64,000 bases of DNA, from contig NZ_JAFAIX010000012.1 in NCBI RefSeq assembly GCF_019236475.1, positions 1,120,619-1,184,618 of the forward strand, in the 5' to 3' direction. Source of the DNA: Chitinophaga sp. GTDB taxonomy: Bacteria; Bacteroidota; Bacteroidia; Chitinophagales; Chitinophagaceae. Every line of letters begins with the position of its first letter. The first letter of the stretch is position 1. Positions 7,747-29,243 of the stretch are shown here, one piece after another. Position numbers and translations under genes: made by a program. The notes under the pieces were generated by a model that was not told where the DNA came from, did no database searches, and saw only the letters and a program-made list of their open reading frames with translations.

Positions 7747-10101
7747 ATGGTAAGAAAACTCTGTTGTGTTCTTCTTGCATTGTGCCCTGTTACCCTTGTT
7801 TATGCACAACAAGAAGTTGTTACCCTTGATCTGAAGAGAGATCCTGTAGCAACGCGGGCTGTCAGAGCGGTAATGCTGGATTCTATTTTGAAGAAATACC
7901 CTATGGATACGGCTTTGCATAAAGCCGGGATACAATCAGGATTTCAGCAATACGTTTCCCGTAACTATGGCACGCAAGAATTATCCAAAATGAAGGATGC
8001 ATCCAAGATGATGTCTGATTCTCTCAGCGCCAAGAAATATTTTGATACCAGATTACGTAGCCTGTATGCCATGAAGGATAACTTTCCGGGCCTGTCTGCA
8101 TTTCCTAAGCATGTGCTGGGAAATAAGTTTGGTGGCGCTAATGCTGCCATCACCTACAATAATGCACCTGGAAATATTGCACCTGTTCAGGTTACAGGAT
8201 CTGTGAACGATCAGGTAACGCTGATGAATATCCCTTTTGATGTGAATTATACTTATCACACCGGACAGCCATGGGATTACCAGGAAGTGTTTGCAAGAGG
8301 TATGAAGCAGGTCAGTTTCAATAAAGAAGAATACGTGGAAAGACTAAGTAAACAGGTGAATAAGTCTTTTGATGTAAATAAATATTTCCTCCAGGATATT
8401 AATGTATCCGATGCTGTGAAAAAATACCTGCAAAACAAGCTGGATGAAGTAAAGACAGGCATTTCGCATCTTACTGGCGACAGTACGCTTCGGGATATTA
8501 TTAGTCCGGAAGAGTTGATCTACCTGGATTCTGCGCAAATAAAAAATGTACTTTCCTCTAATCAAACTATTCGGAATTTTCATCCGACGGATAGTAGTTC
8601 CATGCAGCAATACCTGGACAAGATTTATGCACTGAAGGCACAGGTGGCAAAGGATAAAACCGTGCAGCGGTTGATATCATCGCAGGATAAGCTGAACAAA
8701 ACTATTACTGGGGCTGTGGAAAATCCGGAATCAAAAAAAGATGCACTGCGCTCCCTCCTACCATTAAACTTTATGCAGAAACTTTTTTTGCAGATGAGAA
8801 GTTTGCAGATAGGAAATCTTTCCGGTGAAGGCAATGGATTGACGAAAGATCTTTTCCTGTCTGGGCTGCAAGGCTCCCTGCTTGCGAATAATAAGTTTGT
8901 GATGCTGGGATTAGGTAGTCGTAATGATGCACGTGATTTAAAGAATATCGGCTTAAACAATAGTATGGAGCCGGGTAGCTTTGCAATACAGTTTATGCAG
9001 TTAGGAACTGGTGATCTTAACGGTGCGCATACACATGTAGGCGTATTGAACGCGAACTCCAGGCAGCAGGGAAACTCCTTTAATATGCCAGTATTGCCAA
9101 GAAATATTTTTGTAGGCGCTGTTTCGGAGCAGATTGATTTAGGGCAATATGGAGTGATAGCAGCGGAGTTGGAGAAATCAAATGTTAGTTTGAAGAATGT
9201 TATGGGAGATAACAATTCTCTCCTGGCTTCTAAGGTAGCAGCAGCGGGCATGTTTAATGATTTTATGGAAACGATGTCCTTTGGACTGGATTATAACGGG
9301 GAGTTGAAATCGTGGAATCTTTCCCAGCGGGCATATGCCAAGTTCAGTGGGATGGCTTATAGTAATCCAGGATCGCCAGGTTCCACTAGAGGATCAGTGA
9401 AGTATGGGGTGAAGCTGGACAGGCAATTTCAGAAGAGAAGGATTGCGGTAGGATTCAGAATGGACAGGCAGGATACGCGTATTGCTGCCATGGGTGATTC
9501 CAAATGGAAGAACAGCCAGTTGGCGTTGGACTTCAGAATGCGTGTGAAAAAGAATTTATCTGTTAGTTCCCGCATTGCACAATCTATGATGAAAGGGGTT
9601 ACCGATAGTACCTCCTCCACTGGTTACGTGAATAGGAATATCACTGTTTCTTCGCAATGGAATGGACGCTTGTTTGCCGTGAATAATGCTACCAATGCCA
9701 CTTTTAGTCTGCAACAGGTGGATGTAGCTCCTGTGAAGAGTGTGTTATTGAACATGAACCTGAATCACAATATTATTTTGGGTAGTCATTTATTGTCGGT
9801 GAATGTGATGTACAATAAGGATTTGCGAGATGAAGCATTGTATGGTAACCTCATGACAGCGGAAACATCCTGGAGTTATAAGTTGACCAAGTTGCTAAAC
9901 TGTAGTTCCGGCATTACCTACCTGAATAACAAAGCGGTGGTACAGCAGGCAGGGGTAAGACAAACCATTGGCGCTAACCTGATGAAAAGAATGGATGTTA
10001 ACCTGTTCTTAGACTGTAGGAAGAATCTGCAGAATACAACTCAAAATTATTTATTCGGAACCTTTACCACTTCGCTGGCAATACATTATCAATTGAACTA
10101 A
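7747..10101 (+). CDS. Secreted protein, first gene of the RHS operon; C-terminal part possibly an outer-membrane beta-barrel
   Basis: 784 aa with signal peptide MVRKLCCVLLALCPVTLVYA/QQ. The N-terminal half is K/E/Q/S-rich and looks helical. The last ~280 aa show alternating hydrophobic/polar strands (IAVGFRMDR, LALDFRMRV, ITVSSQWNG, LSVNVMYN, TSWSYKL, VNLFLDC, TTSLAIHYQLN). No family recognised. Confidence 0.7.
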   Translation: MVRKLCCVLLALCPVTLVYAQQEVVTLDLKRDPVATRAVRAVMLDSILKKYPMDTALHKAGIQSGFQQYVSRNYGTQELSKMKDASKMMSDSLSAKKYFDTRLRSLYAMKDNFPGLSAFPKHVLGNKFGGANAAITYNNAPGNIAPVQVTGSVNDQVTLMNIPFDVNYTYHTGQPWDYQEVFARGMKQVSFNKEEYVERLSKQVNKSFDVNKYFLQDINVSDAVKKYLQNKLDEVKTGISHLTGDSTLRDIISPEELIYLDSAQIKNVLSSNQTIRNFHPTDSSSMQQYLDKIYALKAQVAKDKTVQRLISSQDKLNKTITGAVENPESKKDALRSLLPLNFMQKLFLQMRSLQIGNLSGEGNGLTKDLFLSGLQGSLLANNKFVMLGLGSRNDARDLKNIGLNNSMEPGSFAIQFMQLGTGDLNGAHTHVGVLNANSRQQGNSFNMPVLPRNIFVGAVSEQIDLGQYGVIAAELEKSNVSLKNVMGDNNSLLASKVAAAGMFNDFMETMSFGLDYNGELKSWNLSQRAYAKFSGMAYSNPGSPGSTRGSVKYGVKLDRQFQKRRIAVGFRMDRQDTRIAAMGDSKWKNSQLALDFRMRVKKNLSVSSRIAQSMMKGVTDSTSSTGYVNRNITVSSQWNGRLFAVNNATNATFSLQQVDVAPVKSVLLNMNLNHNIILGSHLLSVNVMYNKDLRDEALYGNLMTAETSWSYKLTKLLNCSSGITYLNNKAVVQQAGVRQTIGANLMKRMDVNLFLDCRKNLQNTTQNYLFGTFTTSLAIHYQLN

Positions 10102-10103
10102 TT

Positions 10104-11207
10104 ATGCGCAAGATATTTTTTGGTATTTGCATATTTTTTTTATGTCTCCCGATGTTAGGGGCTGCGCAGGTAACAACAGTGTTTCTCCCCGAAATACAGG
10201 GGCGTACGCTAGATGGATTGTTACAGGCTAAATTCAGCAGTTCCTTGAATTCCAGGCAGCGGGTAGTACTTACTATTACTGTTACCGCTGCATCTGTAGG
10301 AAAGGTGGTGGTGGTGAAAACGTCTCCATTTGATTTGCAACCAGGTGTTAATTCATTGCCCGGTGGAATGTTGAATGGCGCCAGTGTACAGTTTGGTAAT
10401 AATAAAATAGCAACGATACTGCGACAGGCAGGATTTTTTTCAGAAGCAGATTATGAATATTGTTTCGAATTGACTTCTGGAGAGAGCCATGGGAGTGGTA
10501 TGCCAGTAGGACAGCAATGTTTTGATTATGCCCTGAAGCCATTTTCTCCTTTAATGCTTACCTCCCCGATGGATGAGGATAAGATATGTGATAAACGTCC
10601 GAACTTTTTCTGGCAGCCATTATTGCCTGCTATACCTGGTGTGCAGTACAGGATAATACTGACTAAAGTAAATACTGGTCAGCGAAAGGCAGATGCATTG
10701 AGATATAATGTACCGTTGATTAATCAGTCTTTTATCAATACGCCGATGATGTATTTTCCTCCGGCGATTCCTGAATTGGTAGAAGGGGAGAAATATGCAT
10801 GGCAGGTGACAGCTTATCGTGGGGATATGTTATTACAATCTTCCGAGATGTGGGTGTTTACTGTGCAATGTAAGGATAGTAGCAAAGCCTTGACTCCAGA
10901 AAGTTTCCGTGATATTGATGATCTGGCAAAAGGTAATTTTTACCTGGCGAATGGCTATATACGATTTGCTGTGAGGAATGTGTACACCAATGTGAAACTG
11001 AGGTATGACATTCAATGTCTGACAGCGCCTGATAAGAAAGTAAAATATTTGCCGGTTATAGCCTTACAACAAGGTAATAATCATATAGAGATTGATTTGT
11101 CTGAGAACCGTTCTATGCAGGATGGCGCCTATTATATATTGACATTGCATCTCCCAGATGGTACTACAAAACAATTAAGATTCCTGTTTAAAAAAGAAGT
11201 GAACTGA
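10104..11207 (+). CDS. Secreted hypothetical protein (RHS operon gene 2)
   Basis: 367 aa with signal peptide MRKIFFGICIFFLCLPMLGAAQ. It starts 2 nt after the previous stop. No family recognised. Confidence 0.7.
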   Translation: MRKIFFGICIFFLCLPMLGAAQVTTVFLPEIQGRTLDGLLQAKFSSSLNSRQRVVLTITVTAASVGKVVVVKTSPFDLQPGVNSLPGGMLNGASVQFGNNKIATILRQAGFFSEADYEYCFELTSGESHGSGMPVGQQCFDYALKPFSPLMLTSPMDEDKICDKRPNFFWQPLLPAIPGVQYRIILTKVNTGQRKADALRYNVPLINQSFINTPMMYFPPAIPELVEGEKYAWQVTAYRGDMLLQSSEMWVFTVQCKDSSKALTPESFRDIDDLAKGNFYLANGYIRFAVRNVYTNVKLRYDIQCLTAPDKKVKYLPVIALQQGNNHIEIDLSENRSMQDGAYYILTLHLPDGTTKQLRFLFKKEVN

Positions 11208-11737
11208 TGAAGAATTATATAGTAGGAATGCTGGTTGTTACTGGGTTCCTGGCCTGTAACCAGGTGAAGAAAGAACTGAAGGAGAAAATCGTGTCTCCCG
11301 AAACAAATCTTATACAAACAAAACAGATACATGAAACAACCGTTGGCATGTCCTATTTACCGGCTGGTTGGTTGCGTAAGCAAACACAGGATGCAGAGCG
11401 GGATTTCAATCATCAGTTGACCTTTAAAATTAACATCAAAAGTGTTAATGGCGCGCAGTTGCAAGAAGTTAGTCAGCGTCAGGCAGCATCTTATGGATTA
11501 GACACTGTTTTTCAGTTGATATCTGGACGGGATACATTAGCACCGTTGGTAGCAGAGCGGGAAGCGAATGGAAATATTGGAGGCGTGGTATACCTGGTTA
11601 CATTTATCCGACCAGAACAGCCTGCCAATGAAATGCTGCTGGTATACAAAGATTGGCTGTATACCTCTACCAGATTGGTATTCCCGTTAAAAAAACTATT
11701 CATTCATCAAGCAGATTCCCTTAGCCAAAGATTATGA
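11207..11737 (+). CDS. Lipoprotein (RHS operon gene 3)
   Basis: 176 aa. Lipobox MLVVTGFLAC. The ATG overlaps the previous TGA by 1 nt. Confidence 0.7.
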   Translation: MKNYIVGMLVVTGFLACNQVKKELKEKIVSPETNLIQTKQIHETTVGMSYLPAGWLRKQTQDAERDFNHQLTFKINIKSVNGAQLQEVSQRQAASYGLDTVFQLISGRDTLAPLVAEREANGNIGGVVYLVTFIRPEQPANEMLLVYKDWLYTSTRLVFPLKKLFIHQADSLSQRL

Positions 11738-14700
11738 TATTAAGAAACAAAAGAGTAAAGAAGCCGCTAGCGATATTCTTTTTATCGTTGTGGGCATCCG
11801 AATTGTTACTCCCATTACAGTCGCTGGCATTGACTTCCGGCCCCAAACAGCCAGAGACTATGCAATTTCAGCCAGCGGGTACTACAGATATGGTTAACCT
11901 GTTTTCAGGTGCATTTAAATATAATATTCCGTTACTGGATATTGATGGTTATCCTGTCAATTTAAACTATGCTTCTGGCGCCGGTATGGACGATGAAGCT
12001 AGTTGGGTTGGCTTAGGATGGAACCTGAGCGTAGGAGCTATTAACAGGCAATTGCGTGGTGTTCCGGATGATATGAGCGGAGATAATATCCTCACAGAAC
12101 ATTCTACCGAAGATAATTTGACCTATGGTGTTACGGGGACGGTTAGAGGAGAATTATTTGGGTCTAATCTGGCAAAATTATCTGGTTCTATAAATGTGGG
12201 TATATTCAGTAATAATTATACCGGTATGGGCGCTGAAGTGGGTGCCAATGCGGGTTTGAAGTTAGGTTTGGTGACTTCCGGATATTTAACAGCAGGCCTG
12301 AATGCTGGGATTAATTCTAATACCAGCAGTGGTGTGTCTGTGGATGCGGGCATGTCGTTAAGTTCTCAGTTAACCCGGTATGATAAAGGGAATGTGAGTG
12401 TTGGACTTTCTGCGAACCTGGGATATAATACCAGGGAAGGGTTGAAAGCATTGACGCTTGGTGCTAACTTTTCCGCCATCACCTGGCCTTTTTCTGTAGG
12501 CCATGTGTATATGTTCAATACCCCTCCGTTTAATCCTAAGATTAATATACCCTACAAGAACACTAGTAGGTCTTACTCGTTGGATCTGGGATTTTCAGGA
12601 TTTGGCGCATTCACCGGAGCTGGTCTTACGGGATATATGACTCGCCAGAGCGTTGCGAGTAAATCGCGTAATACTCCCTCTTATGGCGCTTTGTATGCCG
12701 ATAAGGGGTCCAATAATGTGAATGCCGTGATGGACTTCATGCGGGAGAAAGATAATCCCGCTATTCCTAATCTGCCTAATCTTCCGGTATCTACTTTGAC
12801 ACCAGATGTATTTACCTATGATCATCAGGCTGGTTCCGGACAGTTCCGACTTAGAAGAGGTGGGGCTGCAGTTATTTTTGATAATGGGACCAAGGATCTA
12901 TCCGACAACTTTACAGCTGGTGGCGACTTTGGTGTTGGAGGTTATTTTCATGGAGGGGTTACCCTTTATAATCAATCGATCGTAAATAAGTCAGGTAAAT
13001 GGTCATCTGAGAATAGTTATCTGAGAATAGGCGATTATAAAAATGATATAACCAATCCTGCTGAAGAGCAGGCTTATTTCAAGCCGGATGGTGACCTTAT
13101 TGCGGAAGATGGGCAATATGATAATATGATTTATGGAGAGGATATCGTTGATGTACCGTTGAGTGGGAAATCCACCTTAAAGCAGTTAAAGAATATTAAG
13201 AATGATGCTGTTACTACTGTTCCGCTGAAGAAAAACGGTCGCCAGCCCAGGACCACTGTTATTTCATATCTGACAAATGCACAAGCATCCAAGTTAAAAG
13301 GTAAGCGTATTTTCAGTTATCCTTTGTTGAATGATAACTTTAATGCGCCTAGTTGCAGTGCAGTTGGAGGACAGGAAGTACCACGATTGGGAGGATATCG
13401 CAAGGCAAACCACATCAGTATGTTTACAATTACAGAAACAGATGGTAAACGTGCTGAATATGGTATTCCCGTTTATAATATAGCGCATGATGAGTTCACT
13501 GTAGCGGCTGACCCCTCATTAAGGACAGCAGAAGGGGACAAAAATGGCCTTACAGGCCTTAGGTTGGATCCCAATAACAGTGAAAACCTGGCGCCTTACA
13601 GCGCTTCCAAGGATAAATTTTATCATCATGAGCAGCAGCCAGCATATGCCTCTTCTTACCTGTTGACAGCATTATATAGTCCTGATTATGTCGATGTGAC
13701 CAATGATGGTATTTCAGATGATGATCCTGGTACTGCTATTAAATTTAACTATTCCCGTGCTACCGCTAATTACAGGTGGAGAACGCCTATGGCCGTAGGA
13801 ATGGGGAGTTTGAACAAAGGGTTGAATGCAGATCCGGAGGATGATCGTGTATCTGTTGTTACTGGTGCTAAAGAATTATGGTATATACATTCTATCGAGA
13901 CTAAAACAAAGATTGCCTATTTCCTGACGGACGACAGAGAGGATGCATTGGGAGTAAAGAATCTAAATGGAGAGCTGGATTTGAACAATAGGCAGCGTCG
14001 TTTGAAGAAGATTGTGTTGTACTCAAAGTCGGATCTGACCAAACCTATTAAGACGGTGGTTTTAAATTATGATCCAAATTATGCTCTTTGTGGGGGGGTA
14101 CCTAACAATGCAAATGGGCATGGTAAGTTAACGTTAGCAGAGGTATATTTCCAATATGGCACCTCCGATAAGGGAAAGTATAACAGGTACACGTTTGATT
14201 ACGAAAATGCTGCTTTCTCTTATATGTCTACCGACCGGTGGGGAGGTTATAAACCTCAGAACTTTAATGCTTTAGGCGGTTTCGGAGAGATGAAGAATGA
14301 TGAGTTCCCGTATGTCATCCAGCATGAGAGTACTGCTACTGGTTATCCCGCTCAGTGGAACCTGATATTCATTAGTCTGCCGAGTGGCGGCCGAGTATCG
14401 GTGAACTATGAATCTGGAGATTATGCTTATGTGCAGGATAGGAAGGCGATGCAAATGGTAAAGCCAACGGGATTGATCACTGATATAAATGCGACTACCA
14501 CCACCAATTCACTACAGATAGCGCGTGGGTTTGTATTACCTGCACCTGGACCATTACGAGGAAGTTCAGATGAAGAAAAGGTACGGAATTTTGTAAATGA
14601 TTACCTGGGAGGCCGAAACGACTTTTATGCCCGACTAAAAGTAAATATGACGGACACTCCAGATGCGACGGATGATTCGAATTATGATATAGTGCCGGCT

Positions 14701-17700
14701 TATGGGGAGGTGGAAGCCGTGAAGGACAATGGCAATGGCACATTCAATGTTATTTTCAAGAATGTTACAGAAGGAGGTGTTTCTACCAATCCGTTCCAGA
14801 TGGCAGCCTGGCAGAAAATGCGGCTAGATTACCCCATGTATGCTTATCCGGGTTATAAGAACCGTATTAGAAATGATATGCCTATTGAAGCGGCATTAAA
14901 TGCATTAGTAAACGCCATTGGAAACTTATCAGAGATCAGGCAGAATTTCAACAAACGTGCAGCCAGGAAAATGTTTGCCAGTAAGGTAAATCTGGAGCGG
15001 AGTTTTGTACGTCTTGTAAAGGCCGATGGGCGTAAGTATGGTGGTCCTTCAAGGGTGCGTAGTATTGAGCTAACAGATCTCTGGAGTGTGATGGGAGGTA
15101 CTCCGGCAAGTGATGCATATTATGGCCAGACGTATGAATATACTCTCCATGAAAATGGTAAGGAGATCAGTAGTGGAGTCGCTTCTTATGAGCCATATAT
15201 TGGAGGAGACGAGAACCCTATGAGGATGCCGGTGCCTTATAGTCAAATATCCAGAGGTACCCTGAATAATAATTTCTATTTAGAAGAGCCATTTGGAGAA
15301 TCCCTGTTCCCTGCCCCAAGTGTGGGATATCGTAGTGTGCGTGTCCGTGATATGGTAAATGGCGGTGTAGATCCGAACAAGCTTACCGGCTGGGTGCAGC
15401 ATGAATTTTATACGGCTAAAGATTTCCCTGTAATTGTAAAAAGTCAGCCAAGGCCGGAAGTATTCCAAAATGGACCATACGGAACTACCAGCTTTACTGG
15501 AGGTCGGGAAATATACCAGTTAAGCATGTCGCAGGGGTATGTGGTGATGACTAATGATATGCATGGAAAGCCCAAAGCAGAAAGAGTATTTAACCGTTCT
15601 GGCGCTGAGATATCTTCTACAGCATATTTCTACAAATCGGATCCGTTGGATGCTGGGAGAATGAAGTTAAATAATGCTGTTACTACGGTAGATGAGAATG
15701 GTGTACTTCATCAGAATGAGGTCATTGGACGGCAGATAGAACTGGTGACGGATATGAGAGAAGCCGAGAATACTAATACCGGAACGTCAATACAAATAGG
15801 CGTAGATGTTATTCCTATTTGGGGCTTTTCGGTGCCAATCCCTCACTGGCCGAAGCGGAATAATGACAGTTATAAACTCTTCAGGTCTGCATCTACTTTA
15901 AAACTTATAGAACAGACGGGCATCCTGGATCATGTTGTGAAAACTGTCAATGGATCTTCCGCAGTTACTAATAACCTGGTGTTTGACCGTAATACCGGTG
16001 GCCCGGTTGTAACCTCCACAACCAATGAATTCAATGATCCAGTATATAGTGTGACGATGCCAGCATATTGGAAATATACAGGTATGTCTGGTGCCTATAA
16101 GAATATCGGTTCGGAGTTTCCTCCCATTGCGACTAATAGTACAGGGTACATTGTGTCTGGTTATATTAACCTCTTCACGCAGGGCGACGAATTAATGGAT
16201 CTGGCTACAGGGCAACGTTTGTGGGTTATCAAGACCGCTGCTAATGGAACAGGGACTAAGTATCTCCGGCTTATCAATGATGCTGGAACAGTAGTGCCTA
16301 ATTATGCTGGTATGGTGAAAGTAATCAGATCTGGTTACCGGAATCTCCTTGGTGCTCCGGCTGAATCAGTAGTATGTTTGAAGAATCCATTGGGAGGTAA
16401 TAGGATTAATGTGCTTTCTGAAGGAGATATGAGTGCATATAAGGTTTTGAGTGCTTCTGCTGTATTATATGAAGAAGAGTGGTCAGCCAGGAGGGATTGC
16501 AATTGCCCTACTGGATATGTGAGTGCTCCGGACGGAAATACTTGTTATAAATTGGCAGATAAGAATCCCAATCCTTTACTGAACCTGATACGCGGATTAC
16601 AGCATCCATTATATGGTACGGATGGAGTGGTAATTGATTCCTCTGGGATGACAACGAAGAGTAATTTTTGGGGTGGCAGTTGTGGGATAGTGACATTTAT
16701 GTCTGCCAATACTATGCGAATGGCAGGAGATACCCCGCTTATGGCCAAAAAGGCGGCTAATGCAGGAGTGTATAGCCAGAATACTACAACAGACACTTAT
16801 TGCGGAAGATTGAATACATGTGGAATCTGGTTTAATGAGGCGCCCGATTATCCTTATACGAATAGGTGGATTGTGTTGGAAACCTGTCTGAAAGTGGACC
16901 AGTCAGGCAATTATACCTTAGGGTATGGGGTTGATAATGCAGCAAAAATTTACATTGACGGGAATCAGGTAGTTAATGCTGATGCTAATGATTGTTGCAC
17001 GTATCTGAAATGGCATTTAAACCGAGTGTATCTGACAGCAGGTACACACAGGCTGAGAATAGAGGGAATGAATACTGGGTATAACGCAGTCCTGGGAGTG
17101 GAAGTTTACAGAGGAACACCTGAGCCGCTGATCACCACAGGAATAGAAGGTGGTGGAGTAGATATAGTTTTTAGTACAAAAGATTTACTGGGGTCAGGTA
17201 CTTTTTATACTGCCGAATTGCTTAACGCAGATCGTACATCTTTTATGCGTCTATACAATTGCAATACGATAGATGTTTGTCGCGGTATTCCAACATGTGA
17301 TAGTGTAACCGGCAATCCACCAATCAATCCTTTCATTAAAAATATCCTGGGTAACTGGCGTCCATCAGAAGAGAAAACTTACCTGGTTAACAGGAATGAC
17401 AACGGTGTGGTGGATAATCGTCAGGATGGGGCCATGGTACGTAGTGGTGGAACATTCACTTCATTTAAGCCTTATTGGTATTTCAGTGCCAGCTTAGGTG
17501 GATGGGTGAATGATACGAACAGTAATAAATGGATTACGAGTAGGTATATCACGTCTTTCAATCAGAATGGAGAGGAAGAAGAAAATAAGGATGCTTTGTT
17601 GCGTTACAGTGCCGCTTTATTTGGATATCAGCATCTTCTTTCTGTGGCAGTTGGCGCTAATGCCATGAAACGGGAGTTATACTTTGATGGCTTTGAAGAT

Positions 17701-18405: not shown

Positions 18406-18460
18406 TTAAATCAGCCTATTACCATATAGGGGACGTAAAAATATCTTACTGAAAATTGTA

Positions 18461-19213: not shown

Positions 19214-19227
19214 GTAACTCCAATCTA

Positions 19228-22200
19228 TTGCCTGTGAAGATATTATCGCTATACCTTAGAAACCTTTTACTGACTGTAGTGTGCCTGTTATTTGCTATTA
19301 CAGCAATGGCGGGAATAGAACCTTATCAGCAAAAGTTGCAGGGTACTCTGAAGAAGGGAGATACCCTGATTGTAAAAGACGAAAAATTTCAGAATAGTTC
19401 CTATAACTGGGCTCAGATACGTAATAACAAAGTAGTGAATGTGATCACATTGGGCTTACGATCAGATACTGTTTTTAAGAAAATTCCGACTTTCAAATGT
19501 GAAGCAGATCTCAAAATCGAATACTGGAGTAGTCCAGATCAGGATCTGCCGATTACCTTGCAACATGTGTCGCTTAAAATTGGTTATGATTCAGTTGCTG
19601 GGAGTATTTACCAGCAAATGGACCAATATCGGTTTGCCAATGCGTATAAAATCAAGGTAACCATTAATGATATCAGTAGTAAGGAGCTGGGAAAATTGCC
19701 TCCGTTATTTTATTTAAATGCAGAGGTGATTGTTAACAGGGATTACCTCCCTGATCCAAAGGCTGATCTGGTACCTATTGTTACGGGGGCTTCTGGAGGT
19801 GCCACCAGTCCCAAAATGCGTACCACGCAGTTAAACGCAACGACTGCCGGCGCGGCACCTGCGTATACCGTTAATGTAGTCTGGGAGGGGGCTCCCTCTA
19901 ACGAACTGTATGACCTGGAGTGGACATTTGTGGATGAAACGTCTGCAAATGGGAAAAGTCTGGCTGCTGCGGGAGCAAATCCAAGTGATGCTTTGCTAGC
20001 TGGTATGTTCAGGAATAATAGTACTCGTATTTCCATTGAAGGTAATACCTATTCAATTCCACTGGTGCAACAGCATCAGTATTTACTTACGCGTATTCGT
20101 AGAGTAGATGAGACAAAAGGTTATCGGGATGAGGGAGATTGGGTGTATAAGTTGATGGTAAATGGTCAGAAAGTACCAGCGGTGTTGACTTTGGCCAATG
20201 GTATTGACTGGTATGAATCTGGCCGTAACTGGCAGTACAGTGCTGTGTATGCAGAAGATGGGAAGCGAAAAGAAGTAGTTTCCTTCTTTGATGGTACATT
20301 ACGTAACAGACAGTCTGTTACTTTATCCTCTACAGCCAATAAGGCAATTGTGCAGGAAACCATCTATGATGCTTACGGTCGGGCAGTAGCCAATATTCTG
20401 CCTGCACCTGTTAACAATGAAACATTGCGGTTTTATGAAGGTGTTAACCTCGGTCCTGATGGACAGCCATATACTTGGCAGAATGTATTGAAAAATGAAA
20501 CGGGTAGTTGTACTATAAAACCAGATCCATTAAATACCAGCAATGGGGCATCCAGGTATTATTCCGCTAACAATGATATTACCACGGATCCATTTAGAAA
20601 AAATATCCCTGATGCAGAAGGTTATCCAATTGCTGTAACTACCTACACTCCTGATAACACGGGAAGGCCAAGTGTGCAGGGGGGCGTTGGGTTCCAGTTA
20701 CAGCCTGATAATTCAAATCCGCTCACGAACCGTAGTACGCGACTGTATTACGGGAAGCCTGAACAATGGGAGTTGGACCGCATTTTTGGGAATGACATAG
20801 GGTATGCAGATCATTATCTGAAGAACATGACCATTGATCCGAATGGGCAAGTGTCTGTTTCCTATCAGAACAGTAATGGAAAGGTAATCGCTACAGCATT
20901 GACTGGTAGTAATCCGGATACTTCCCTCCTGCCCTTGTCGGACCGTCCGGAGCCTAGGAGAATAAAATACAGGATGTTTACTCCAGACAGGTTTAAATTT
21001 GATGCACAGTTATTAAAGTTAACGGCTACCTCTACTTATCTGGCAGCTGTTCCCTATGTGAAAGATACACTGGAACTGAATATTCCGGACCTGATCAAAA
21101 AGTACCAGGAGAATAATGTTACCATTTGCAGTAATTGTTTTTATGAGTTGAGTGTACAGGTGAGTGATGATTGTGGTCAAATACTGGTAGATATTAAAAA
21201 CGATGAGATAGGTAGCAAATTACCTGATTGTGGTAAAAATGGTAATACCCAGCGTATAATTAATATACCTGTAAATAAGATAGGTGAGTACTATGTTACA
21301 GTTACACTTGCACTCAATCCTTATGCTATCGAGGCATTTACAGACGATTTTATTAAAAACAATACCAATCTGAAGACACAGTTCTATTTTGTGCTGGAGC
21401 TGTTGAAACGTGAGAATTTTACTAAATGCTTTTCTGATTGTTCTTCCTGTAAAGCGGCGCTGGGTGAAAGGTCTGATTTCATGCAGGCATTTAAACAGCG
21501 TATGCAGCAGAATGGTATTGACGTTGTTGCCAATCAAGCGACGATTGATGTGTGGGTATCTGCATGGTATGATGTATTATACAGCAATTGTCAAGCGTCA
21601 CGGGAAACATGTACACCATCTCCTTGTGATCGGCTGAAGGGATTGTTGATGGAAGATGTTAGTCCGGGTGGGCAGTTCGCACTATTTGATGCGAATGGTA
21701 ACCCGCTGGAACCTACGATTAACGTTATCAGTAATAACTGGAGGGCTGTATTCCCCGCTATGACCAGTGGACCTGACTATGAGAATAACAAGTTCGAGGT
21801 GAATGATGGTGTCATTCTGACCCCTAATAGCCCTGATTTTACATTGCAGATGCTGGTTCAATATTGGCAGCCACAATGGGCAGAGAAATTTATCAATTTC
21901 CATCCTGAAAGATGTGCCTATGATTTCTGTTTGGGGAATAGTCAATATAAAAAATGGGATCAACGTTTGACAGAGGTCTATACTTCAATCGCGGAATTAC
22001 CGGCAGTGCTGAACGGAGTACAATATAGCAGAACTGATCCTGCATGGTTGCTGGCAGCAGATCCGTACTTCAAACCTGGTGCTCCTGGAGCAGCGTATAT
22101 GGGTTCATTCCAGAATGATCTGATTAGGTATTCAGAAAGGGTATTGAAAATTTCGGCTCCATTAAAGAGCATATCCGATTTTGTGGACTTTAGTCTCTAC

Positions 22201-25200
22201 TGCGTTGATATAACTGGTTCTATCAATCGTTATCAACCTGCCAATACCTCCACCGCCTGGACACAATGTGATCCTGAGCCATCCTGTCGGATTCCAGATC
22301 TGGAATGGCAGTATTATTTAAAGTTTTATCTGGAACTGAAAGACAAGTATTATCAACAATACATGGATAGTGCTTTTTGTAAGGGTAAATGTAGGGTAGG
22401 CACGTCTTCTGCCCCTGTACCGGGAACAGAATTACCTGGGGCAGATTGTAGTGGAATCTTGCCAAGCGACTTTAGAGCTTATTATGAGGTAATCAACTAT
22501 GAGGGTTATGTAACTTACGAGTATACAGGGAATCCTATCAAAGAAGGGGTTACTGTAAAGGTTTCGGTTTTTGACAACGGGGATTATCGCGATGAATTTG
22601 GTACTGATGTAATGGGAGCTGAATTTACTCATTATACTCCAACTAAGCTGGTGTTCAATGCGGGTAGGGGTAAACATGGGCGTATTCCCAAAGTATTTCT
22701 GGAAACGGTATTACAAAGTTGTACTTCAGATCCGGTCTATGTTGACACCTGCGATCCACTCTATCGCAATAAGCAATCCAGAATAGGGAATGCAGCACTT
22801 CCGTTTGCAGTTAGTACAGATACCATGACGCTTAAACAGCAGGTCAAAGACTCATTAAATAAGCAGTTGAATTCTGCTTGTTCTGTTAATGTAGATTCTT
22901 TCATTGCGAAGCTATCACATTCCAGTACGTATAGTGGTCTGAGTACAACAATGAGAAGTAGCTTACGTGCAGGTCTTCTGGAGATATGTACGAAAGGCGG
23001 TGATCTTGAACATATTTTTGGTAGTAATACTGTAAAGCCAGGGGAATCAACAGCAAATGGAGATGTGTCTATGGAGCAGGTAATGAAGCGAGTAATAGGT
23101 TATAGTGTATTTACATTAGATTTTAATCCGTGGTTGACAGATGCATTTTATGCTTATGATAAGCCGGGGCAAAGTGTTGCTAAAGTAACTTCCAAGACTA
23201 CGGCTGCTATCTGTACAAAGTTGGATGCGCTCAGGGCTGAACAGCAGGTCAATCAGCCTGGAATGTCCCTTTACAATTACCTGGTTTCGCAGTATGGTAG
23301 TGCGATGAATTTGAAGGAGGCCGATTTTAATGCATTGGTGAAATCATGTAGTAATTGTCGTTACCTGATAGATAGAGAGATCAAATTACCGGTATTCCTA
23401 GATGGAACGGCTAAGGGTTGTATTACCGGCATTGAGTTTAATGCGGCTATGAGTGACCTATCTGCGGCTATTTCAGATTTTCAGAATACATCCAATCCGA
23501 ATTACAACGATGTAGTAAGAAATTACCTGAACCAACGTTGGGGTTTCACACTTGGTGAAACAGAATATGCCCTTTATAAGGATCAGTTACAAACATCACC
23601 CAATGCGATACTCTGTAATATTCCTGTTTATGATCAGATAGACCAGAATCCTTTGCAGTGTATGTTTAACCTGATTGATGGTGCTGTTGAAGGTGGTAAG
23701 CGCCAATACGACCAGTATATCGATTCCGTACGTAAGGATTTCAAAAACAGATATATAGCAGTTTGTAGTGGTGTGAAGGCTACCGGGGATTATTCCACCT
23801 CTGTGCAGAATTACCACTATACGTTGTATTACTATGATCAGGCTGGTTCTTTGGTGCGTACCATTCCGCCGGCTGGCGTAAAACTGATTGATAGTCCTGA
23901 GCAGTTGGAGTATATACGTAAGGCAAGGGATGCAGGTAACAGTTGTAATTACAATGGTCCGATGCAGAATACACCAGTGAGTGATGCATTATTGGCTATA
24001 GGGGATGCTGTGGTGAATAATAATCAGGCACTGGAAATGTGGGTAGCAGGATCCAAAGATCCCGTACACCTGGTGACGCCTGTTGGTAATAACAAGGCTT
24101 ACTTTACAATGGCTGTTCATAATGGTCATATGGAGATAGCCATTTATCGACTCACCTCTCCTTCTCCCGAAATAGAGATCGTAAACAGTAATATCATTTC
24201 TGTGGCGGTGGGGACTGACTTTGCATTGCGTCCATTTAACCATATTGTTATCCAGGGTACGAATTTATCTGATGCTACTTCTCCGATGTCTGTCTATATG
24301 AACGGGGTATTATTGCAGGAAGAGCAGAATGTACCGGGTTCTCCATTGGAATGGGAGATTGATGGTAGTGGCACCTTTACCACTGATATTGCCATGTTGC
24401 GCCAGATGAGGGTGTATAACAGACTGCTGGCCAGCAATGAAATTATGGCGAATGCAGACGAGATGTGTATGGGCTTGTCGCCGGATTATGAAAGTGGATT
24501 GCGTAATAACCTGGTAAACTGGAGTAGAATAAATACCACTGATGCAGATGGCTTGCCAACGCAAAACCCGGATGGAACTGTAGTTGGTTATACTGGTGGT
24601 ATCTATCCAAAACATAATCTGAAAACCAGCTATGCTTATAACTCTTTGGGAGGGGTGGTACGCCAGCGTACACCGGATGCTAAAGAAAGCAAATTCTGGT
24701 ATGATTACACTGGTAAACTGGTGTTTTCCGCAAATGCCGAGCAACAGCGAGAAGCTGGTCGATACAGCTATACGAAATATGATGACCTGGTTAGAATTGT
24801 GGAGGTTGGTGAGAAAAGAAATGCCGCTGTACTGACGATGCCTGATTTTCTGCCTGAGTCGACTGTTCAACAACAATATGGATCTGGTACAGATGGTCAG
24901 ATGACCACCACCATTTATGACGTACCTGTTTTGAATACCTCGTTATATCCACAAGATAACCTGCGTAAACGCGTAGCAGCAAGCATTTATAGAGATGCCG
25001 CCGGTGCAAATCCGATAGCAACCTACTATAGTTATGATCCGTTGGGGAATGTGAAGTCTTTATGGCAACAGTTGGATGGGTTACACGAGATGAAGCGTCT
25101 GGAATATAAGTATGACCTGGTGAGTGGGAAAGTAAATGAGGTAAGATACCAGTTTGGCAAGCCGGATCAGTTCTTCTATAATTATAGTTATGATGCAGAT

Positions 25201-27498
25201 AACCGTTTAATTGCAGCTACTTCTGGTATTGCGGATAATGGTAATGGCTGGAAAATTTCCACTCCTTCCAATGATGCGCAATATAGCTACTATCTACATG
25301 GTCCACTGGCAAGAACTCTTATCGGTTCCAAATTTGTCCAGGGTATCGATTATGCCTATACGTTACAAGGTTGGTTGAAGTACATCAATGGGGTGCAGTT
25401 GGATCCACAGAAGGATCTTGGTAAAGATGGTACTAACGGATATGCACCTGATGTAATGGCTTATTCCCTGGATTACTTTACCGGTGATTATAAGAACATT
25501 GGTGGTCAGAAATTGGGTATTAATTATCAGCATGCCACCACTGATATCACTGGTCAGAATTTGTACAATGGGAATATTAGTCGTACTACAGCGGCACTGA
25601 GTAATATTAATGGAGGCATGCCTGTGGGATATTCTTATCGTTATGATCAGTTGAACCGTATCCGCTCCATGCGCCGTCATCCATTGACTAATACCACTTC
25701 CACATGGGGAGCGGCACAAATTGGCACCAATCGTAATGGAGAAGACTATACCTATGATGCGAATGGTAACATCCTGACTTTGAACCGTAACGGTAATGAT
25801 GATAACCATCTTGCCATGGATAGGTTGGCATATCAGTATGAACGTGATGGAGAGGGGTATCTGTTGAATAACCAATTACAGTTAGTACATGATGCTGTTC
25901 CTGCATCTACCTATCCTTCGGATGTAGATGATATGACTACTGCATTCCGTTATGATTCTATTGGTAATCTGATTGCAGATGAGTCCAATGGCATTTCGGA
26001 GATCAAATGGACAGTTTATGGTAAGATACAATCCATTAGTAGTACAAATGGCTCATTAATTTACAAATATGATGCTGGTGGAAACAGGATTTACAAAGAA
26101 TTCCATCCTGCTTCTTCACCTTCCACCGTACAGCGTACGTGGTATCTCCGTGATCCTCAAGGACAAGTATTGGCAACCTATGGAAATACCAATGGGGATA
26201 ATGCAACCTATTGGAAAGAACAGTATCTTTATGGAAGTAGCAGGTTAGGCATGTGGCAGCCTGATATGCTGGTGGCGGGTGGATCTGTTGGAAACGCGAG
26301 TTCCATCTGGGGGCAGGGTAACCGTAAACGTTATGAGTTATCCAATCACCTGGGGAACGTATTGGCTACTATTGGTGATGAGAAAAGTGGAGATTATGCT
26401 ACGGTGTTTAACCAGACAGATTATACACCGTTTGGAGCGCAGATGGATGGTGCGGTTTGGAATTTAGGAGCAGGCTACAGGTATGGGTTTAATGGTAAGG
26501 AGAATGATAATGAGGTGAAGGGTGATGGGAATCAGCAGGATTATGGGATGAGGGTGTATGATCCGAGGATTGCGAAGTTCTTATCTGTGGACCCGTTGAC
26601 GCAAGATTATCCGTTTTATACACCTTATCAATTTGCTGGTAATAATCCAATAAAGTACATAGACTTGGATGGTGGTGAGCAATTAGACCCCATTTCTAGG
26701 TATTTATTTAATAATGCTGCTTTAACTATTGTCAAAGATCCGACATCTACTAAAGCAAAGGCGCTTAGCATCGGAATGGGAGTTGGTGGTTCAGTGGAAA
26801 AGCAAATAGGTTTTTACATTAACGCATTTAGGCATCCTATTAATACGGTTAAGTCCTTAGGAAAGATGCTGGTGCAGACTAATGAAGAACGTATTGCCGA
26901 CTATGCAAACTCTATTACTCTTAAATATACTGCTCTAGGCGATAACAATGCCATTTATGGAGCTGGCGCTGAGGCAACAACGGATATAATCTTTGGGCTA
27001 AGTAGTTTGAAGGCTGGGTTTAAATCGCCTACTGTTGCGGAGCCTCCCGCTCCATCAGAACCAGCTGGACCACCTCCAATAACCTTTGAATATGAAGGTG
27101 TTCAGCATGAGGTTCAGGCAACGACTCCATATAGAAGACCAACTAATGCTACTACCAATGCCCAAAGACGGGCAGTGAACCAGCCTGGAGCTACTTGTGT
27201 TACTTGCGGTGTATCAAATGTTAGAATGAATGCAGACCATATTACACCATTGTCTATCGAATTTTTGACAAGTGGTAATATAGATGCAACACATATGCGG
27301 TCATTAGAAGCTGTTCAGCCTCAGTGCGGAAACTGTTCAAATGCACAAGGTGTAACATTGCGAAATATAACCAGAGTAGTAAATAATCAGATACGACTGA
27401 GACAAAGCTCGAATCCAAGCCCAAGTCCAAGTCCAAATCCGCCTGCTACTCCAACTAATATTAATCAAATAGGACAAAATGGATCAACAACTCCTTAA
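19228..27498 (+). CDS. RHS-repeat polymorphic toxin with N-terminal signal peptide and C-terminal HNH-type nuclease tip
   Basis: 2756 aa. Start is TTG 19228 or GTG 19234. Signal peptide LLLTVVCLLFAITAMAG. DUF6443-like stretch (VVSFFDGTLRNRQSVTL...ETIYDAYGRAVANILPAP). Many YD repeats, an RHS core and a variable C-terminus (see sub-features). Confidence 0.92.
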   Translation: MPVKILSLYLRNLLLTVVCLLFAITAMAGIEPYQQKLQGTLKKGDTLIVKDEKFQNSSYNWAQIRNNKVVNVITLGLRSDTVFKKIPTFKCEADLKIEYWSSPDQDLPITLQHVSLKIGYDSVAGSIYQQMDQYRFANAYKIKVTINDISSKELGKLPPLFYLNAEVIVNRDYLPDPKADLVPIVTGASGGATSPKMRTTQLNATTAGAAPAYTVNVVWEGAPSNELYDLEWTFVDETSANGKSLAAAGANPSDALLAGMFRNNSTRISIEGNTYSIPLVQQHQYLLTRIRRVDETKGYRDEGDWVYKLMVNGQKVPAVLTLANGIDWYESGRNWQYSAVYAEDGKRKEVVSFFDGTLRNRQSVTLSSTANKAIVQETIYDAYGRAVANILPAPVNNETLRFYEGVNLGPDGQPYTWQNVLKNETGSCTIKPDPLNTSNGASRYYSANNDITTDPFRKNIPDAEGYPIAVTTYTPDNTGRPSVQGGVGFQLQPDNSNPLTNRSTRLYYGKPEQWELDRIFGNDIGYADHYLKNMTIDPNGQVSVSYQNSNGKVIATALTGSNPDTSLLPLSDRPEPRRIKYRMFTPDRFKFDAQLLKLTATSTYLAAVPYVKDTLELNIPDLIKKYQENNVTICSNCFYELSVQVSDDCGQILVDIKNDEIGSKLPDCGKNGNTQRIINIPVNKIGEYYVTVTLALNPYAIEAFTDDFIKNNTNLKTQFYFVLELLKRENFTKCFSDCSSCKAALGERSDFMQAFKQRMQQNGIDVVANQATIDVWVSAWYDVLYSNCQASRETCTPSPCDRLKGLLMEDVSPGGQFALFDANGNPLEPTINVISNNWRAVFPAMTSGPDYENNKFEVNDGVILTPNSPDFTLQMLVQYWQPQWAEKFINFHPERCAYDFCLGNSQYKKWDQRLTEVYTSIAELPAVLNGVQYSRTDPAWLLAADPYFKPGAPGAAYMGSFQNDLIRYSERVLKISAPLKSISDFVDFSLYCVDITGSINRYQPANTSTAWTQCDPEPSCRIPDLEWQYYLKFYLELKDKYYQQYMDSAFCKGKCRVGTSSAPVPGTELPGADCSGILPSDFRAYYEVINYEGYVTYEYTGNPIKEGVTVKVSVFDNGDYRDEFGTDVMGAEFTHYTPTKLVFNAGRGKHGRIPKVFLETVLQSCTSDPVYVDTCDPLYRNKQSRIGNAALPFAVSTDTMTLKQQVKDSLNKQLNSACSVNVDSFIAKLSHSSTYSGLSTTMRSSLRAGLLEICTKGGDLEHIFGSNTVKPGESTANGDVSMEQVMKRVIGYSVFTLDFNPWLTDAFYAYDKPGQSVAKVTSKTTAAICTKLDALRAEQQVNQPGMSLYNYLVSQYGSAMNLKEADFNALVKSCSNCRYLIDREIKLPVFLDGTAKGCITGIEFNAAMSDLSAAISDFQNTSNPNYNDVVRNYLNQRWGFTLGETEYALYKDQLQTSPNAILCNIPVYDQIDQNPLQCMFNLIDGAVEGGKRQYDQYIDSVRKDFKNRYIAVCSGVKATGDYSTSVQNYHYTLYYYDQAGSLVRTIPPAGVKLIDSPEQLEYIRKARDAGNSCNYNGPMQNTPVSDALLAIGDAVVNNNQALEMWVAGSKDPVHLVTPVGNNKAYFTMAVHNGHMEIAIYRLTSPSPEIEIVNSNIISVAVGTDFALRPFNHIVIQGTNLSDATSPMSVYMNGVLLQEEQNVPGSPLEWEIDGSGTFTTDIAMLRQMRVYNRLLASNEIMANADEMCMGLSPDYESGLRNNLVNWSRINTTDADGLPTQNPDGTVVGYTGGIYPKHNLKTSYAYNSLGGVVRQRTPDAKESKFWYDYTGKLVFSANAEQQREAGRYSYTKYDDLVRIVEVGEKRNAAVLTMPDFLPESTVQQQYGSGTDGQMTTTIYDVPVLNTSLYPQDNLRKRVAASIYRDAAGANPIATYYSYDPLGNVKSLWQQLDGLHEMKRLEYKYDLVSGKVNEVRYQFGKPDQFFYNYSYDADNRLIAATSGIADNGNGWKISTPSNDAQYSYYLHGPLARTLIGSKFVQGIDYAYTLQGWLKYINGVQLDPQKDLGKDGTNGYAPDVMAYSLDYFTGDYKNIGGQKLGINYQHATTDITGQNLYNGNISRTTAALSNINGGMPVGYSYRYDQLNRIRSMRRHPLTNTTSTWGAAQIGTNRNGEDYTYDANGNILTLNRNGNDDNHLAMDRLAYQYERDGEGYLLNNQLQLVHDAVPASTYPSDVDDMTTAFRYDSIGNLIADESNGISEIKWTVYGKIQSISSTNGSLIYKYDAGGNRIYKEFHPASSPSTVQRTWYLRDPQGQVLATYGNTNGDNATYWKEQYLYGSSRLGMWQPDMLVAGGSVGNASSIWGQGNRKRYELSNHLGNVLATIGDEKSGDYATVFNQTDYTPFGAQMDGAVWNLGAGYRYGFNGKENDNEVKGDGNQQDYGMRVYDPRIAKFLSVDPLTQDYPFYTPYQFAGNNPIKYIDLDGGEQLDPISRYLFNNAALTIVKDPTSTKAKALSIGMGVGGSVEKQIGFYINAFRHPINTVKSLGKMLVQTNEERIADYANSITLKYTALGDNNAIYGAGAEATTDIIFGLSSLKAGFKSPTVAEPPAPSEPAGPPPITFEYEGVQHEVQATTPYRRPTNATTNAQRRAVNQPGATCVTCGVSNVRMNADHITPLSIEFLTSGNIDATHMRSLEAVQPQCGNCSNAQGVTLRNITRVVNNQIRLRQSSNPSPSPSPNPPATPTNINQIGQNGSTTP
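24031..24460 (+). other. LamG/concanavalin-like insertion inside the RHS protein
   Basis: ...LEMWVAGSKDPVHLV...FNHIVIQGTNLSDATSPMSVYMNGVLLQEE...IAMLRQMRVYNRLLASNEI. This is the typical LamG_3-style ending (R-x-Y-N-R-x-L-S-x-x-E-I). Confidence 0.55.
24631..26679 (+). other. YD/RHS repeat block and RHS-associated core
   Basis: Repeats such as YAYNSLGGVVRQ, WYDYTGKLVFS, YSYDPLGNVKSL, YKYDLVSGKVNEV, YSYDADNRLIAA, YRYDQLNRIRSM, YTYDANGNILTL and YKYDAGGNRIYK. The core ends YGMRVYDPRIAKFLSVDPLTQDYPFYTPYQFAGNNPIKYIDLDGGE. Confidence 0.9.
26680..27498 (+). other. Variable C-terminal toxin region (linker, Pro-rich hinge, HNH/EndoVII-like nuclease, PS-rich tail)
   Basis: 273 aa after the RHS core. Hinge AEPPAPSEPAGPPP. 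Then CVTCG(27196)...NADHITPL...QPQCGNCSNAQG(27325), i.e. CxxC...DH...CxxC as in zinc-stabilised beta-beta-alpha-metal nucleases. Tail SSNPSPSPSPNPPATP. Confidence 0.6.
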
Positions 27499-27859
27499 GT
27501 TAGAATTGGAAATATCACATAGGCAACAGGAACTGTGCAGGAAATATGGAGCACCATATTTTGAAACATCAATAGATAAATTATTGGGAATTGCAACAGA
27601 AACCTTTGCAAAGCCTATGAAGTGGCCTATAAATGGTTTACGCCATCCGATAGAATCGGAGAATTCTTCTAATTGGTATATCTGGGCAGGTGAGGATTTT
27701 AAGGAGACGGATGATTTTTTTCAACCAATGCATATTTATCATCTGAATAAAGTATACCCCAAAATATTAGATTATTTGGGGTTACCTCCTGGTTGGCGCT
27801 TTTTGTTCGATGATACTTATGAAGATGTTTGGTATGATGAAAGTTTACTACATATTTAA
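27479..27859 (+). CDS. Putative cognate immunity protein
   Basis: 126 aa with no signal peptide. The ATG overlaps the toxin 3' end by 20 nt, the classic toxin-immunity arrangement. No family recognised with confidence. Confidence 0.7.
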   Translation: MDQQLLKLELEISHRQQELCRKYGAPYFETSIDKLLGIATETFAKPMKWPINGLRHPIESENSSNWYIWAGEDFKETDDFFQPMHIYHLNKVYPKILDYLGLPPGWRFLFDDTYEDVWYDESLLHI

Positions 27860-27910
27860 TAAGCTTAGTCTATCATGTTTTTCTGAAAGAACTCTTTAAA
27901 CTTAGACTTG

Positions 27911-27946
27911 GTAAGCATTGTATCGATAATCCGGTACAATGCTTAC
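27911..27946. terminator. Strong hairpin terminator ending the RHS operon (between convergent genes)
   Basis: gtaagcattgta-(12-nt loop)-tacaatgcttac, a perfect 12-bp stem followed by tcatttat. Confidence 0.65.
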
Positions 27947-27961
27947 TCATTTATAAACGTA

Positions 27962-29222: not shown

Positions 29223-29243
29223 AGCGACAGAAAGATTTAGACT

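Follow-up and report, generated by a model that had tools for sequence, protein, structure and literature searches.

RHS toxins are among the most widespread of bacterial weapons, and we know of no Gram-negative example whose delivery is other than by a type VI secretion system (T6SS) or by an injector of the Tc type. The subject here is a stretch of 64,000 nucleotides from a metagenome-assembled genome of Chitinophaga sp. (called the window; it is the sequence that was analyzed), in which seven tightly coupled genes encode five envelope proteins (p1 to p5), an RHS toxin with a signal peptide (p6) and an immunity protein. The toxin, its tip and the immunity gene are of a standard, already known kind; what appears new, on comparison of many such loci, is the five-gene companion module conserved beside them. 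The best reading is that this module would be a dedicated, Sec-dependent and phylum-specific device for the export and presentation of an antibacterial RHS toxin. A search of the openly searchable literature, with subscription-only papers outside its reach, found no description of the gene cluster; as of 2019 the organization of Rhs genes in Bacteroidetes was called not yet studied (PMC6775972).

One way to place the locus is by its likeness to systems already described. The Rhs effectors of T6SS, such as Rhs1 of Photorhabdus (7q97) and RhsP of Vibrio (8h8a), share with p6 an RHS/YD shell, a swappable toxin, an immunity gene and an Rhs core with a DPxG-type end motif, and the p6 profile matches their structures. 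They differ in having a PAAR- or VgrG-binding domain, where p6 has a Sec signal peptide, a DUF6443 domain and a Cys-rich N-terminal region of about 1500 aa; in addition, no T6SS genes lie near p6. The TcB-TcC cocoons (TcdB2-TccC3, YenB-YenC2) resemble the locus in that a giant gene lies upstream of the RHS protein, which has a core protease and a variable tip; p4, the giant protein of the module, carries a short SpvB-like motif, and the core of p6 matches YenC2 and RHS2. Here too the likeness is partial: p4 has neither propeller nor RHS shell and matches no TcB structure, no TcA accompanies it, the toxins of the module appear to be antibacterial, with an immunity gene in the window, and four extra conserved genes have no Tc counterpart.

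The closest working analogy in logic seems to be two-partner secretion and contact-dependent inhibition (CDI), exemplified by the CdiB/CdiA pair of the type V secretion systems (T5SS). Common to both would be the use of Sec, a dedicated outer-membrane barrel gene upstream (in the module the suggested barrel p1), a giant surface protein, a polymorphic toxin with its immunity and the lack of an ATPase; the toxin repertoires overlap as well, for example in the EC869-like CDI toxin. The module nevertheless lacks Omp85, POTRA and two-partner secretion (Haemagg_act) domains and has four extra components, and its carrier is an RHS shell in p6 whereas that of CdiA is a filamentous haemagglutinin repeat. 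In the Gram-positives, WapA of Bacillus subtilis is reportedly a Sec-dependent RHS toxin, in work attributed to Koskiniemi et al. in 2013. WapA and p6 both have a signal peptide, RHS repeats, a C-terminal toxin and an immunity gene, with no dedicated injection machine; WapA, however, has no outer membrane to pass and no conserved accessory operon. Within the Bacteroidota, the Rhs/YD locus PGN_1816-1825 of Porphyromonas gingivalis has the core motif PxxxxDPxGE and variable tips, and the large gene upstream of its main RHS gene is reported to encode a cargo protein of the type IX secretion system (T9SS) (PMC6775972). The core motif, the variable tips and the large upstream gene recall the present locus; the upstream gene differs in being T9SS cargo, a comparison with p4 made by description only.

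In the window the seven open reading frames (ORFs) all lie on the plus strand: p1 at 7747-10101 (784 aa), p2 at 10104-11207 (367 aa), p3 at 11207-11737 (176 aa), p4 at 11734-18405 (2223 aa), p5 at 18461-19213 (250 aa), p6 at 19228-27498 (2756 aa) and the immunity gene at 27479-27859 (126 aa), with intergenic gaps, in operon order, of 2, -1, -4, 55, 14 and -20 nt. Separate gene calls on the same contig concur, with alternative starts for p2 and p5; an ATG at 18470 would give a p5 of 247 aa. All six products p1-p6 have Sec-type N-termini: signal peptides of the classical type can be read directly from the translations of p1, p2, p4 and p6, p3 has a lipobox (FLAC), and the N-terminus of p5 is short and hydrophobic. 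The immunity protein has no signal peptide and is read as cytoplasmic. An earlier sequence-only reading of this DNA had given the same genes with the same spacing, and N-terminal signals on every product but the immunity protein; the ORF list and gene calls bear out the former, and the translations the latter.

The evidence that carries the argument is the company these genes keep. Loci of p4 number at least 560 in GTDB species-representative genomes, and the 80 best of them from GTDB species genomes, each with 10-kb flanks, formed the forward sample. BLAST with the window proteins found p1 in 71 of these loci, p2 in 73, p4 in all 80 and p6 in 77, in a constant gene order: p1, p2, a small ORF, p4, an ORF of ~260 aa, p6. 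The misses are mostly contig ends (L027, L044, L073) or weak matches, the exception being L055, which has full flanks yet no p6 match. Searches with hidden Markov models (HMMs) add p1 or p2 in two more loci; with both methods, p1 and p2 are found in 73 of the 79 loci (~92%) that have enough upstream sequence. Counted by position, p3 has an equivalent of 130-205 aa, situated between p2 and p4, in 67 of 72 loci; one further ORF in this count, of 511 aa in L056, belongs to a split p4 as its N-terminal portion. In the place of p5, after p4 and before p6, 75 of 76 loci have an ORF of 230-304 aa. The genomes belong to many genera of Chitinophagaceae, to Pedobacter and Mucilaginibacter, and in one case each to Flavobacteriaceae and Saprospiraceae.

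The reverse test was a metagenome scan anchored on p2, made with a narrow p2 alignment, which returned 58 loci. Here p1 lies upstream of p2 wherever the contig extends, L135 being a doubtful case for want of upstream sequence. All 24 of the metagenome loci that are long enough continue downstream with p4, p5 and the conserved p6 N-terminus. The surroundings are less constant. Genes flanking the operon in the window recur solely in the nearest relative, and the genes upstream of p1 in 62 loci fall into 81 different Pfam families, none of them common; a seventh conserved gene was found neither in the window flanks nor among those upstream neighbors. Such heterogeneity implies that the module begins at p1. 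To judge by synteny, the six genes p1-p6 are inherited as one module, in which no ATPase or inner-membrane component is present. The sequence-only reading had proposed the five upstream genes as partners dedicated to the RHS toxin, a proposal that homologs usually lying without an RHS gene beside them would have spoken against. The p2-anchored scan found the opposite arrangement, and synteny in both directions amid unrelated flanks argues strongly for the partnership.

The second line of evidence concerns the toxin. As expected of an RHS polymorphic toxin, p6 has RHS/YD repeats, an Rhs core and a variable tip with an immunity gene. Pfam recognizes DUF6443 at residues 343-402 (window 20254-20433; E 4e-7, 30.8 bits, cutoff 27.8), and the Rhs-associated core (TIGR03696) occupies residues 2399-2482 (26422-26673; 45.8 bits, cutoff 32.5), ending in NPIKYIDLDG followed by GE. 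The match of Pfam RHS_repeat to the single p6 sequence is marginal; the YD motifs are invariant over 24 homologs, and a profile of 24 family members matches the solved RHS/TcC structures SGS1 8fjp (E 1e-19), 8h8a (1.5e-9), 7q97 (1.7e-6), YenC2 and RHS2. In 43 complete homologs, similarity to the window protein runs near full length; for about 30 of these the end falls at query residues ~2479-2494, within the D-x-D-G motif, and in the remainder similarity fades 20-120 residues later. Beyond that point lie unrelated tails of 137-285 aa. Those that Pfam can name include Col-Pyo DNase, the EC869-like CDI toxin, GH-E, WHH, AHH, LHH and HNH-HHH, a deaminase, REase-5, a GH108 lysozyme-like enzyme and reprolysin-like peptidases. 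On this comparison the tip behind the Rhs core motif is swapped between strains; unrelated tails that include toxin families, together with an immunity gene, are the signature of interbacterial polymorphic toxins, and polymorphic tips speak against an anti-eukaryotic role of the Tc kind.

The tip found in the window is 271 aa long (26683-27495) and bears the motif CVTCG...DHITP...QPQCGNC...Q. The NGO1392-like clade of HNH nucleases is marked by CxxC, DH, CxxC and Q, and Imm33 is among its listed immunities (Zhang et al. 2012, PMC3482391). Because the tip has this motif and an Imm33-like partner gene, it is probably an NGO1392-type HNH/EndoVII nuclease; the name HNH, already used in the sequence-only reading, is supported to that extent, but not by any Pfam, HMM or PDB match to the tip. 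The immunity protein (Pfam Imm33-like, E 1.7e-37), whose gene shares 20 nt with the toxin gene, was found in none of the other 80 loci, which is what one would expect if toxin and immunity vary together as a cognate pair. Elsewhere in p6, residues 630-1520 contain many invariant cysteines (for example at 1238-1411, window ~22939-23460), which fit an extracytoplasmic location. By eye, the stretch from the first YD repeat to the main RHS array also contains a LamG/ConA-like insert, at residues ~1560-1790.

By every membership test applied, the five-gene module falls outside T6SS, T9SS, T5SS and Tc. Pfam scans of the window covered ORFs of at least 150 aa and four shorter ones. Among these there are no T6SS genes, no T9SS genes and no TcA-sized gene; outside the operon they comprise TonB-dependent receptors (the largest, at 1150 aa, is also the largest other ORF of the window), an RND efflux pair, metabolic genes and a tail-fiber-like cluster. 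The flanking genes examined in other loci likewise include no TcA-sized gene. PAAR, VgrG and Hcp gave no match in p6 or in the other scanned ORFs of the window. For the C-terminal sorting domains of T9SS, TIGR04183 (type A) and TIGR04131 (type B), neither p4 nor p6 has a match in NCBIfam at E<=0.1 or in Pfam; at this threshold NCBIfam returns nothing for p4 and Rhs_assc_core alone for p6. ShlB, POTRA and Haemagg_act gave no match in p1, p4, p6 or 30 homologs of p1. The absence of T6SS, T9SS and TcA-sized genes, and of a PAAR/T6SS adaptor or T9SS C-terminal domain in the RHS protein, had been reported from inspection alone, and it holds for all ORFs scanned.

What the smaller components might do has to be approached family by family. 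No Pfam or NCBIfam family describes p1. Behind its signal peptide, the N-terminal half is helical or coiled-coil and the C-terminal half is rich in beta-strands. Out of 1.84 billion proteins, the family profile finds 210 representatives (those listed, 150 in number, are ~260 to 1130 aa long, most of them 700-1060 aa), and a further search with a 30-sequence alignment added hardly any homologs; a family so narrow is not a general porin. An AlphaFold2 (AF2) model built on an 8-sequence alignment has ~15 long strands at residues 524-781, and many of the strands of p1 are amphipathic. In Foldseek this model has 190 PDB matches at E<1e-3; the 50 that are listed are without exception outer-membrane barrels, among them PorV and a subunit of the beta-barrel assembly machinery (BAM) of Flavobacterium johnsoniae. 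Pfam OMP_b-brl touches one of 30 homologs (E 0.003), and a profile search of the PDB gave coiled-coil noise at residues ~200-360. Since the model is of low confidence (predicted local distance difference test, pLDDT, 39.6), the assignment of p1 as an outer-membrane beta-barrel is suggestive only, and the earlier guess of an outer-membrane component is plausible on the same footing.

The best conserved of the small components is p2, a secreted DUF928-like protein with a signal peptide: 15 of 32 family members match DUF928 in Pfam (best E 1.3e-6), and a PDB profile search gives a weak match to the surface glycan-binding protein BT_4661. As had been guessed, p3 is a small lipoprotein; nearly all of the ORFs listed at its position have a signal peptide and a Cys, in sequences that are strongly divergent. 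The small anchor protein of the sequence-only reading, p5, turns out to be LolA3-like and may be periplasmic or anchored; a charged n-region followed by a hydrophobic h-region is present in 74 of 75 positional homologs. Against the NCBIfam equivalog LolA3_fam (NF053579) p5 scores 53.5 bits (E 2.3e-14), below the cutoff of 83, and 25 of 25 relatives match the same model (best E 3.8e-21), apparently below the cutoff too; p5 thus appears homologous to the LolA3 family, short of equivalog membership. No PDB chain was found with the p5 family profile. LolA3 of F. johnsoniae and P. gingivalis is of unknown function and has no LolB pairing (PMC11885536, PMC13103446). The p5 protein and its 25 tested relatives resemble these in matching the family model; p5 differs, besides its score, in lacking the Lys-rich tail of Fjoh_0605, which points to a paralogous subfamily tied to this module.

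The giant partner, p4, belongs to a family of more than 1000 members at 90% clustering, annotated throughout as hypothetical or PA14. Its signal peptide is followed at residues 75-122 (11956-12099) by an SpvB/TcB-like motif, SG.G...GLGW.L....I.R...G.P, whose residues are invariant in 67 homologs. The Pfam SpvB match to it (15.7 bits, E 0.009, cutoff 22) spans 45 of 287 profile positions and 48 residues; p4 misses the family threshold for the SpvB N-terminal domain. Closer to the N-terminus, directly behind the point where the signal peptide is predicted to be cleaved, all 67 aligned homologs have an invariant or nearly invariant motif, LTSGPxQPE....F (residues 33-45, window 11830-11868), which could be a sorting or processing signal. 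Residues 118-420 (12085-12993) form a Gly/Ser/Asn-rich array, which an AF2 model of residues 1-1200 (pLDDT 77.5) shows as ~15 long antiparallel strands, with confident beta-rich domains after them. Strong amphipathicity marks the first six of these strands (128-232) in the 67 homologs: one face has a family mean hydropathy of ~1.4 to 2.7 (at least 2.0 in five of six strands), the opposite face -0.95 to -2.1. In Foldseek the model has weak matches of two kinds, one to outer-membrane barrels and one to the N-domain of SpvB (6p0x; probability 0.84, E 0.013, TM score 0.30). The array could be a membrane-inserted barrel or hairpin array, or else an SpvB-like curved sheet. Toward the C-terminus come a PA14 domain at residues 1699-1779 (16828-17070; Pfam E 3.5e-8, 33.8 bits, cutoff 24), a CBM_4_9-like segment at 2081-2136 (17974-18141; sub-threshold, at 22.6-24.4 bits against 25.9) and a nearly invariant YD-like peptide at ~2165-2215 (18226-18378); the Pfam scan also marks an EGF-like Cys stretch. 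The YD-like peptide is the sole segment of p4 that aligns to the RHS repeats of p6, at an insignificant hhalign probability of 0.2.

Identity of p4 with TcB is rejected: in p4 neither the propeller of TcB nor an RHS shell was found. TcdB_toxin_midN and TcdB_toxin_midC have no Pfam match in p4 even at E<=10. Profile searches of the PDB with the whole p4 family and with its first 450 residues returned no TcB or SpvB chain (E<=10 for the N-terminal profile); Foldseek found no TcB or RHS cocoon match for the model, residues 1201-1560 lying outside the modeling; and hhalign of the p4 family against the RHS family was insignificant (probability 0.2). The label 'TcB/SpvB-like' attached to p4 in the sequence-only reading goes back to the 48-residue sub-threshold match and does not hold up. 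Nor does the suggestion that p4 and p6 are a Tc-like B/C pair put to a new use, for which PDB, Foldseek and hhalign searches gave no support.

We think it probable that the locus is a self-contained polymorphic-toxin system, specific to Bacteroidota and directed against other bacteria, composed of six conserved envelope proteins, a variable tip and an immunity gene. A stronger proposal is more tentative, and we put it somewhat short of an even chance: that p1-p5 are a previously undescribed, ATP-independent machine for export across, or presentation at, the outer membrane, specific to the phylum, and a new pathway for RHS toxins. That proposal includes a barrel, a LolA-like periplasmic chaperone and a giant receptor-binding partner, all of the system's own, and no relation to T5SS, T6SS, T9SS or Tc toxins. 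A mechanism can be sketched: Sec would carry all parts over the inner membrane; p1, an outer-membrane barrel with a periplasmic coiled-coil half, would join with the DUF928-like p2 and the lipoprotein p3 in an outer-membrane station that exports or anchors p4 and p6; the LolA3-like p5 would shield a hydrophobic or amphipathic element in the periplasm, its client being most likely the array of amphipathic hairpins in p4 or else a lipid anchor. At the surface, p4 would bind glycans of the target cell through its PA14 and CBM-like domains, while the RHS shell of p6 would enclose the toxin until the aspartyl protease of the Rhs core frees it; upon contact, the toxin would enter the neighboring cell.

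Several points weigh against a dedicated exporter. Export of the toxin by the module is something we infer, as are surface display and killing. The synteny samples are the best-matching 80 loci and the 58 metagenome loci. Six loci (L013, L035, L041, L044, L049, L060), all from Sphingobacteriaceae and mostly from Mucilaginibacter, keep p4-p5-p6 without p1 and p2 in HMM searches; in these, p1 and p2 either act in trans or are dispensable. A full locus (L056, its p4 split into 511 + 1719 aa) and a locus of p4-p6 only (L060) occur together in Mucilaginibacter sp. PPCGB 2223; this fits action in trans and does not prove it. To these must be added the low confidence of the p1 model and the lack of a database match for the window tip. 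These organisms also generally encode T9SS and BAM elsewhere in the genome, and help from such generic machinery is possible. Carried to its end, this would mean that machinery encoded elsewhere (T9SS, BAM or the translocation and assembly module, or outer-membrane vesicles) moves p4 and p6 over the outer membrane, p1, p2, p3 and p5 being factors for assembly, chaperoning or anchoring and not a conduit. Such an account would make sense of a module without an energy source or inner-membrane part, of the six loci minus p1 and p2, of the membership of p5 in a chaperone-type fold family, and of the T9SS cargo gene that adjoins the P. gingivalis Rhs locus (PMC6775972). We consider it unlikely: NCBIfam (E<=0.1) and Pfam show in p4 and p6 none of the C-terminal domains by which T9SS cargo of types A and B would be recognized, the C-terminus of p6 is a variable toxin, and the narrow p1 family is met with nowhere but in this module, the pattern expected of a dedicated component and not of a helper in a general pathway.

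The same proteins might serve mainly in adhesion or kin recognition at the cell surface, as a teneurin-like YD protein with a PA14 adhesin, toxin delivery being secondary. The PA14 and CBM-like domains of p4 invite this idea, as do the LamG-like insert apparent in p6 and the size of its conserved body, which at 2400 aa far exceeds what a shell alone requires. It fits poorly with the variable tails, since those of the 43 that Pfam names are mostly classic antibacterial toxins, and with the overlapping gene for a cytoplasmic immunity protein in the window, a signature of antagonism; we judge it quite improbable. Least credible, with only the slightest chance, is that p4 and p6 are the B and C subunits of a BC toxin of the Tc type, with eukaryotes (insects, nematodes or amoebae) as its targets. 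Its attractions are the short SpvB-like motif of p4, the weak Foldseek match to the SpvB N-domain, and the profile match of the p6 core to the TcC proteins YenC2 and RHS2. Its B subunit, however, would lack the TcdB mid domains, the beta-propeller and the RHS shell and would match no TcB chain by sequence profile or fold, and neither the window nor the examined flanks of other loci supply a TcA-sized gene. The tips that Pfam names are mostly nucleases, with one peptidoglycan hydrolase, and the window tip comes with cytoplasmic immunity.

Directly before the p3-like lipoprotein of L041 and L044 stands a protein of 960-973 aa, which in L033 and L039 is found immediately upstream of p1. A family of secreted proteins of 360-810 aa recurs upstream of ~38 loci, often in tandem (for example L056:2696-5140, L060:4410-9961 and L035:7206-9479); its members have a common C-terminal domain of ~110 aa with ~50% identity. 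RHS fragments adjoin some modules (L018:267-2072, L002:26230-26637, L017:26999-27472), and two p4 genes may lie on one contig (P0054/P0067 and P0019/P0020), as in Chitinophaga sp. S165, where two p4 locus tags are six apart. These fragments and pairs indicate tandem copies of the module, and orphan cassettes, in some genomes. In the window itself, tblastn found no orphan RHS fragments or toxin cassettes downstream.

An AT-rich leader of 450 bp (7297-7746, plus strand), presumed to be the promoter region, has 31.6% GC against 42.4% for the operon; it lies between p1 and a divergent gene for an FHA-domain protein (6853-7296, minus strand). At the other end a terminator-like hairpin (27910-27947, unstranded; -23.1 kcal/mol) separates the operon from a convergent gene for an XRE-type helix-turn-helix regulator, HTH_3 (27962-28294, minus strand). 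Both boundary signals had been noticed before; the leader was given correctly, and the hairpin is real, its stem being 16 bp and stronger than the 12 bp claimed. Within the operon, counts of promoter and terminator consensus equal the shuffled expectation, so nothing speaks against a single transcript. The HTH_3 and FHA genes are otherwise kept beside the module only in the closest relative. In the GenBank record all seven products are annotated as hypothetical; RefSeq and UniRef name p6 as an RHS repeat-associated core domain protein, and the UniRef labels are PA14 domain protein for p4 and Imm33 domain protein for the immunity product. The p4 sequence is 100% identical to NCBI JO154_20935.

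Beyond the operon and the HTH gene is a low-GC island (32-37%; 28632-31711, plus strand) with five small ORFs of 196, 213, 132, 94 and 196 aa. No significant Pfam family was found in the four of these that were scanned, and they could be orphan immunity genes. Further on, at 34691-45937 (plus strand), four tandem tail-fiber-like paralogs (888, 789, 787 and 790 aa) are followed by ORFs of 192 and 258 aa. Each paralog has a Peptidase_S74 chaperone domain, and two have a Shufflon_N-like segment also; their N-terminal 100-110 aa are 80-89% identical and their middles divergent. Proteins with this N-terminal segment occur upstream of p1 in ~9-12 other loci, directly adjoining it in several (for example L002, L014, L036 and L064).

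What the locus means for these bacteria can be put at two levels. At the level of genes, a signal-peptide RHS toxin is tied to five uncharacterized envelope proteins at no fewer than 560 loci in Bacteroidota of soil and rhizosphere, and the module accounts for a large block of the giant 'hypothetical' genes in their genomes. At the level of function, if the module is indeed an exporter, it would be a new outer-membrane route for proteins of 250-300 kDa; it would assign a function to the LolA3-like subfamily represented by p5; and it would provide, for culturable genera such as Chitinophaga and Pedobacter, a set of genes that are obvious choices for deletion.

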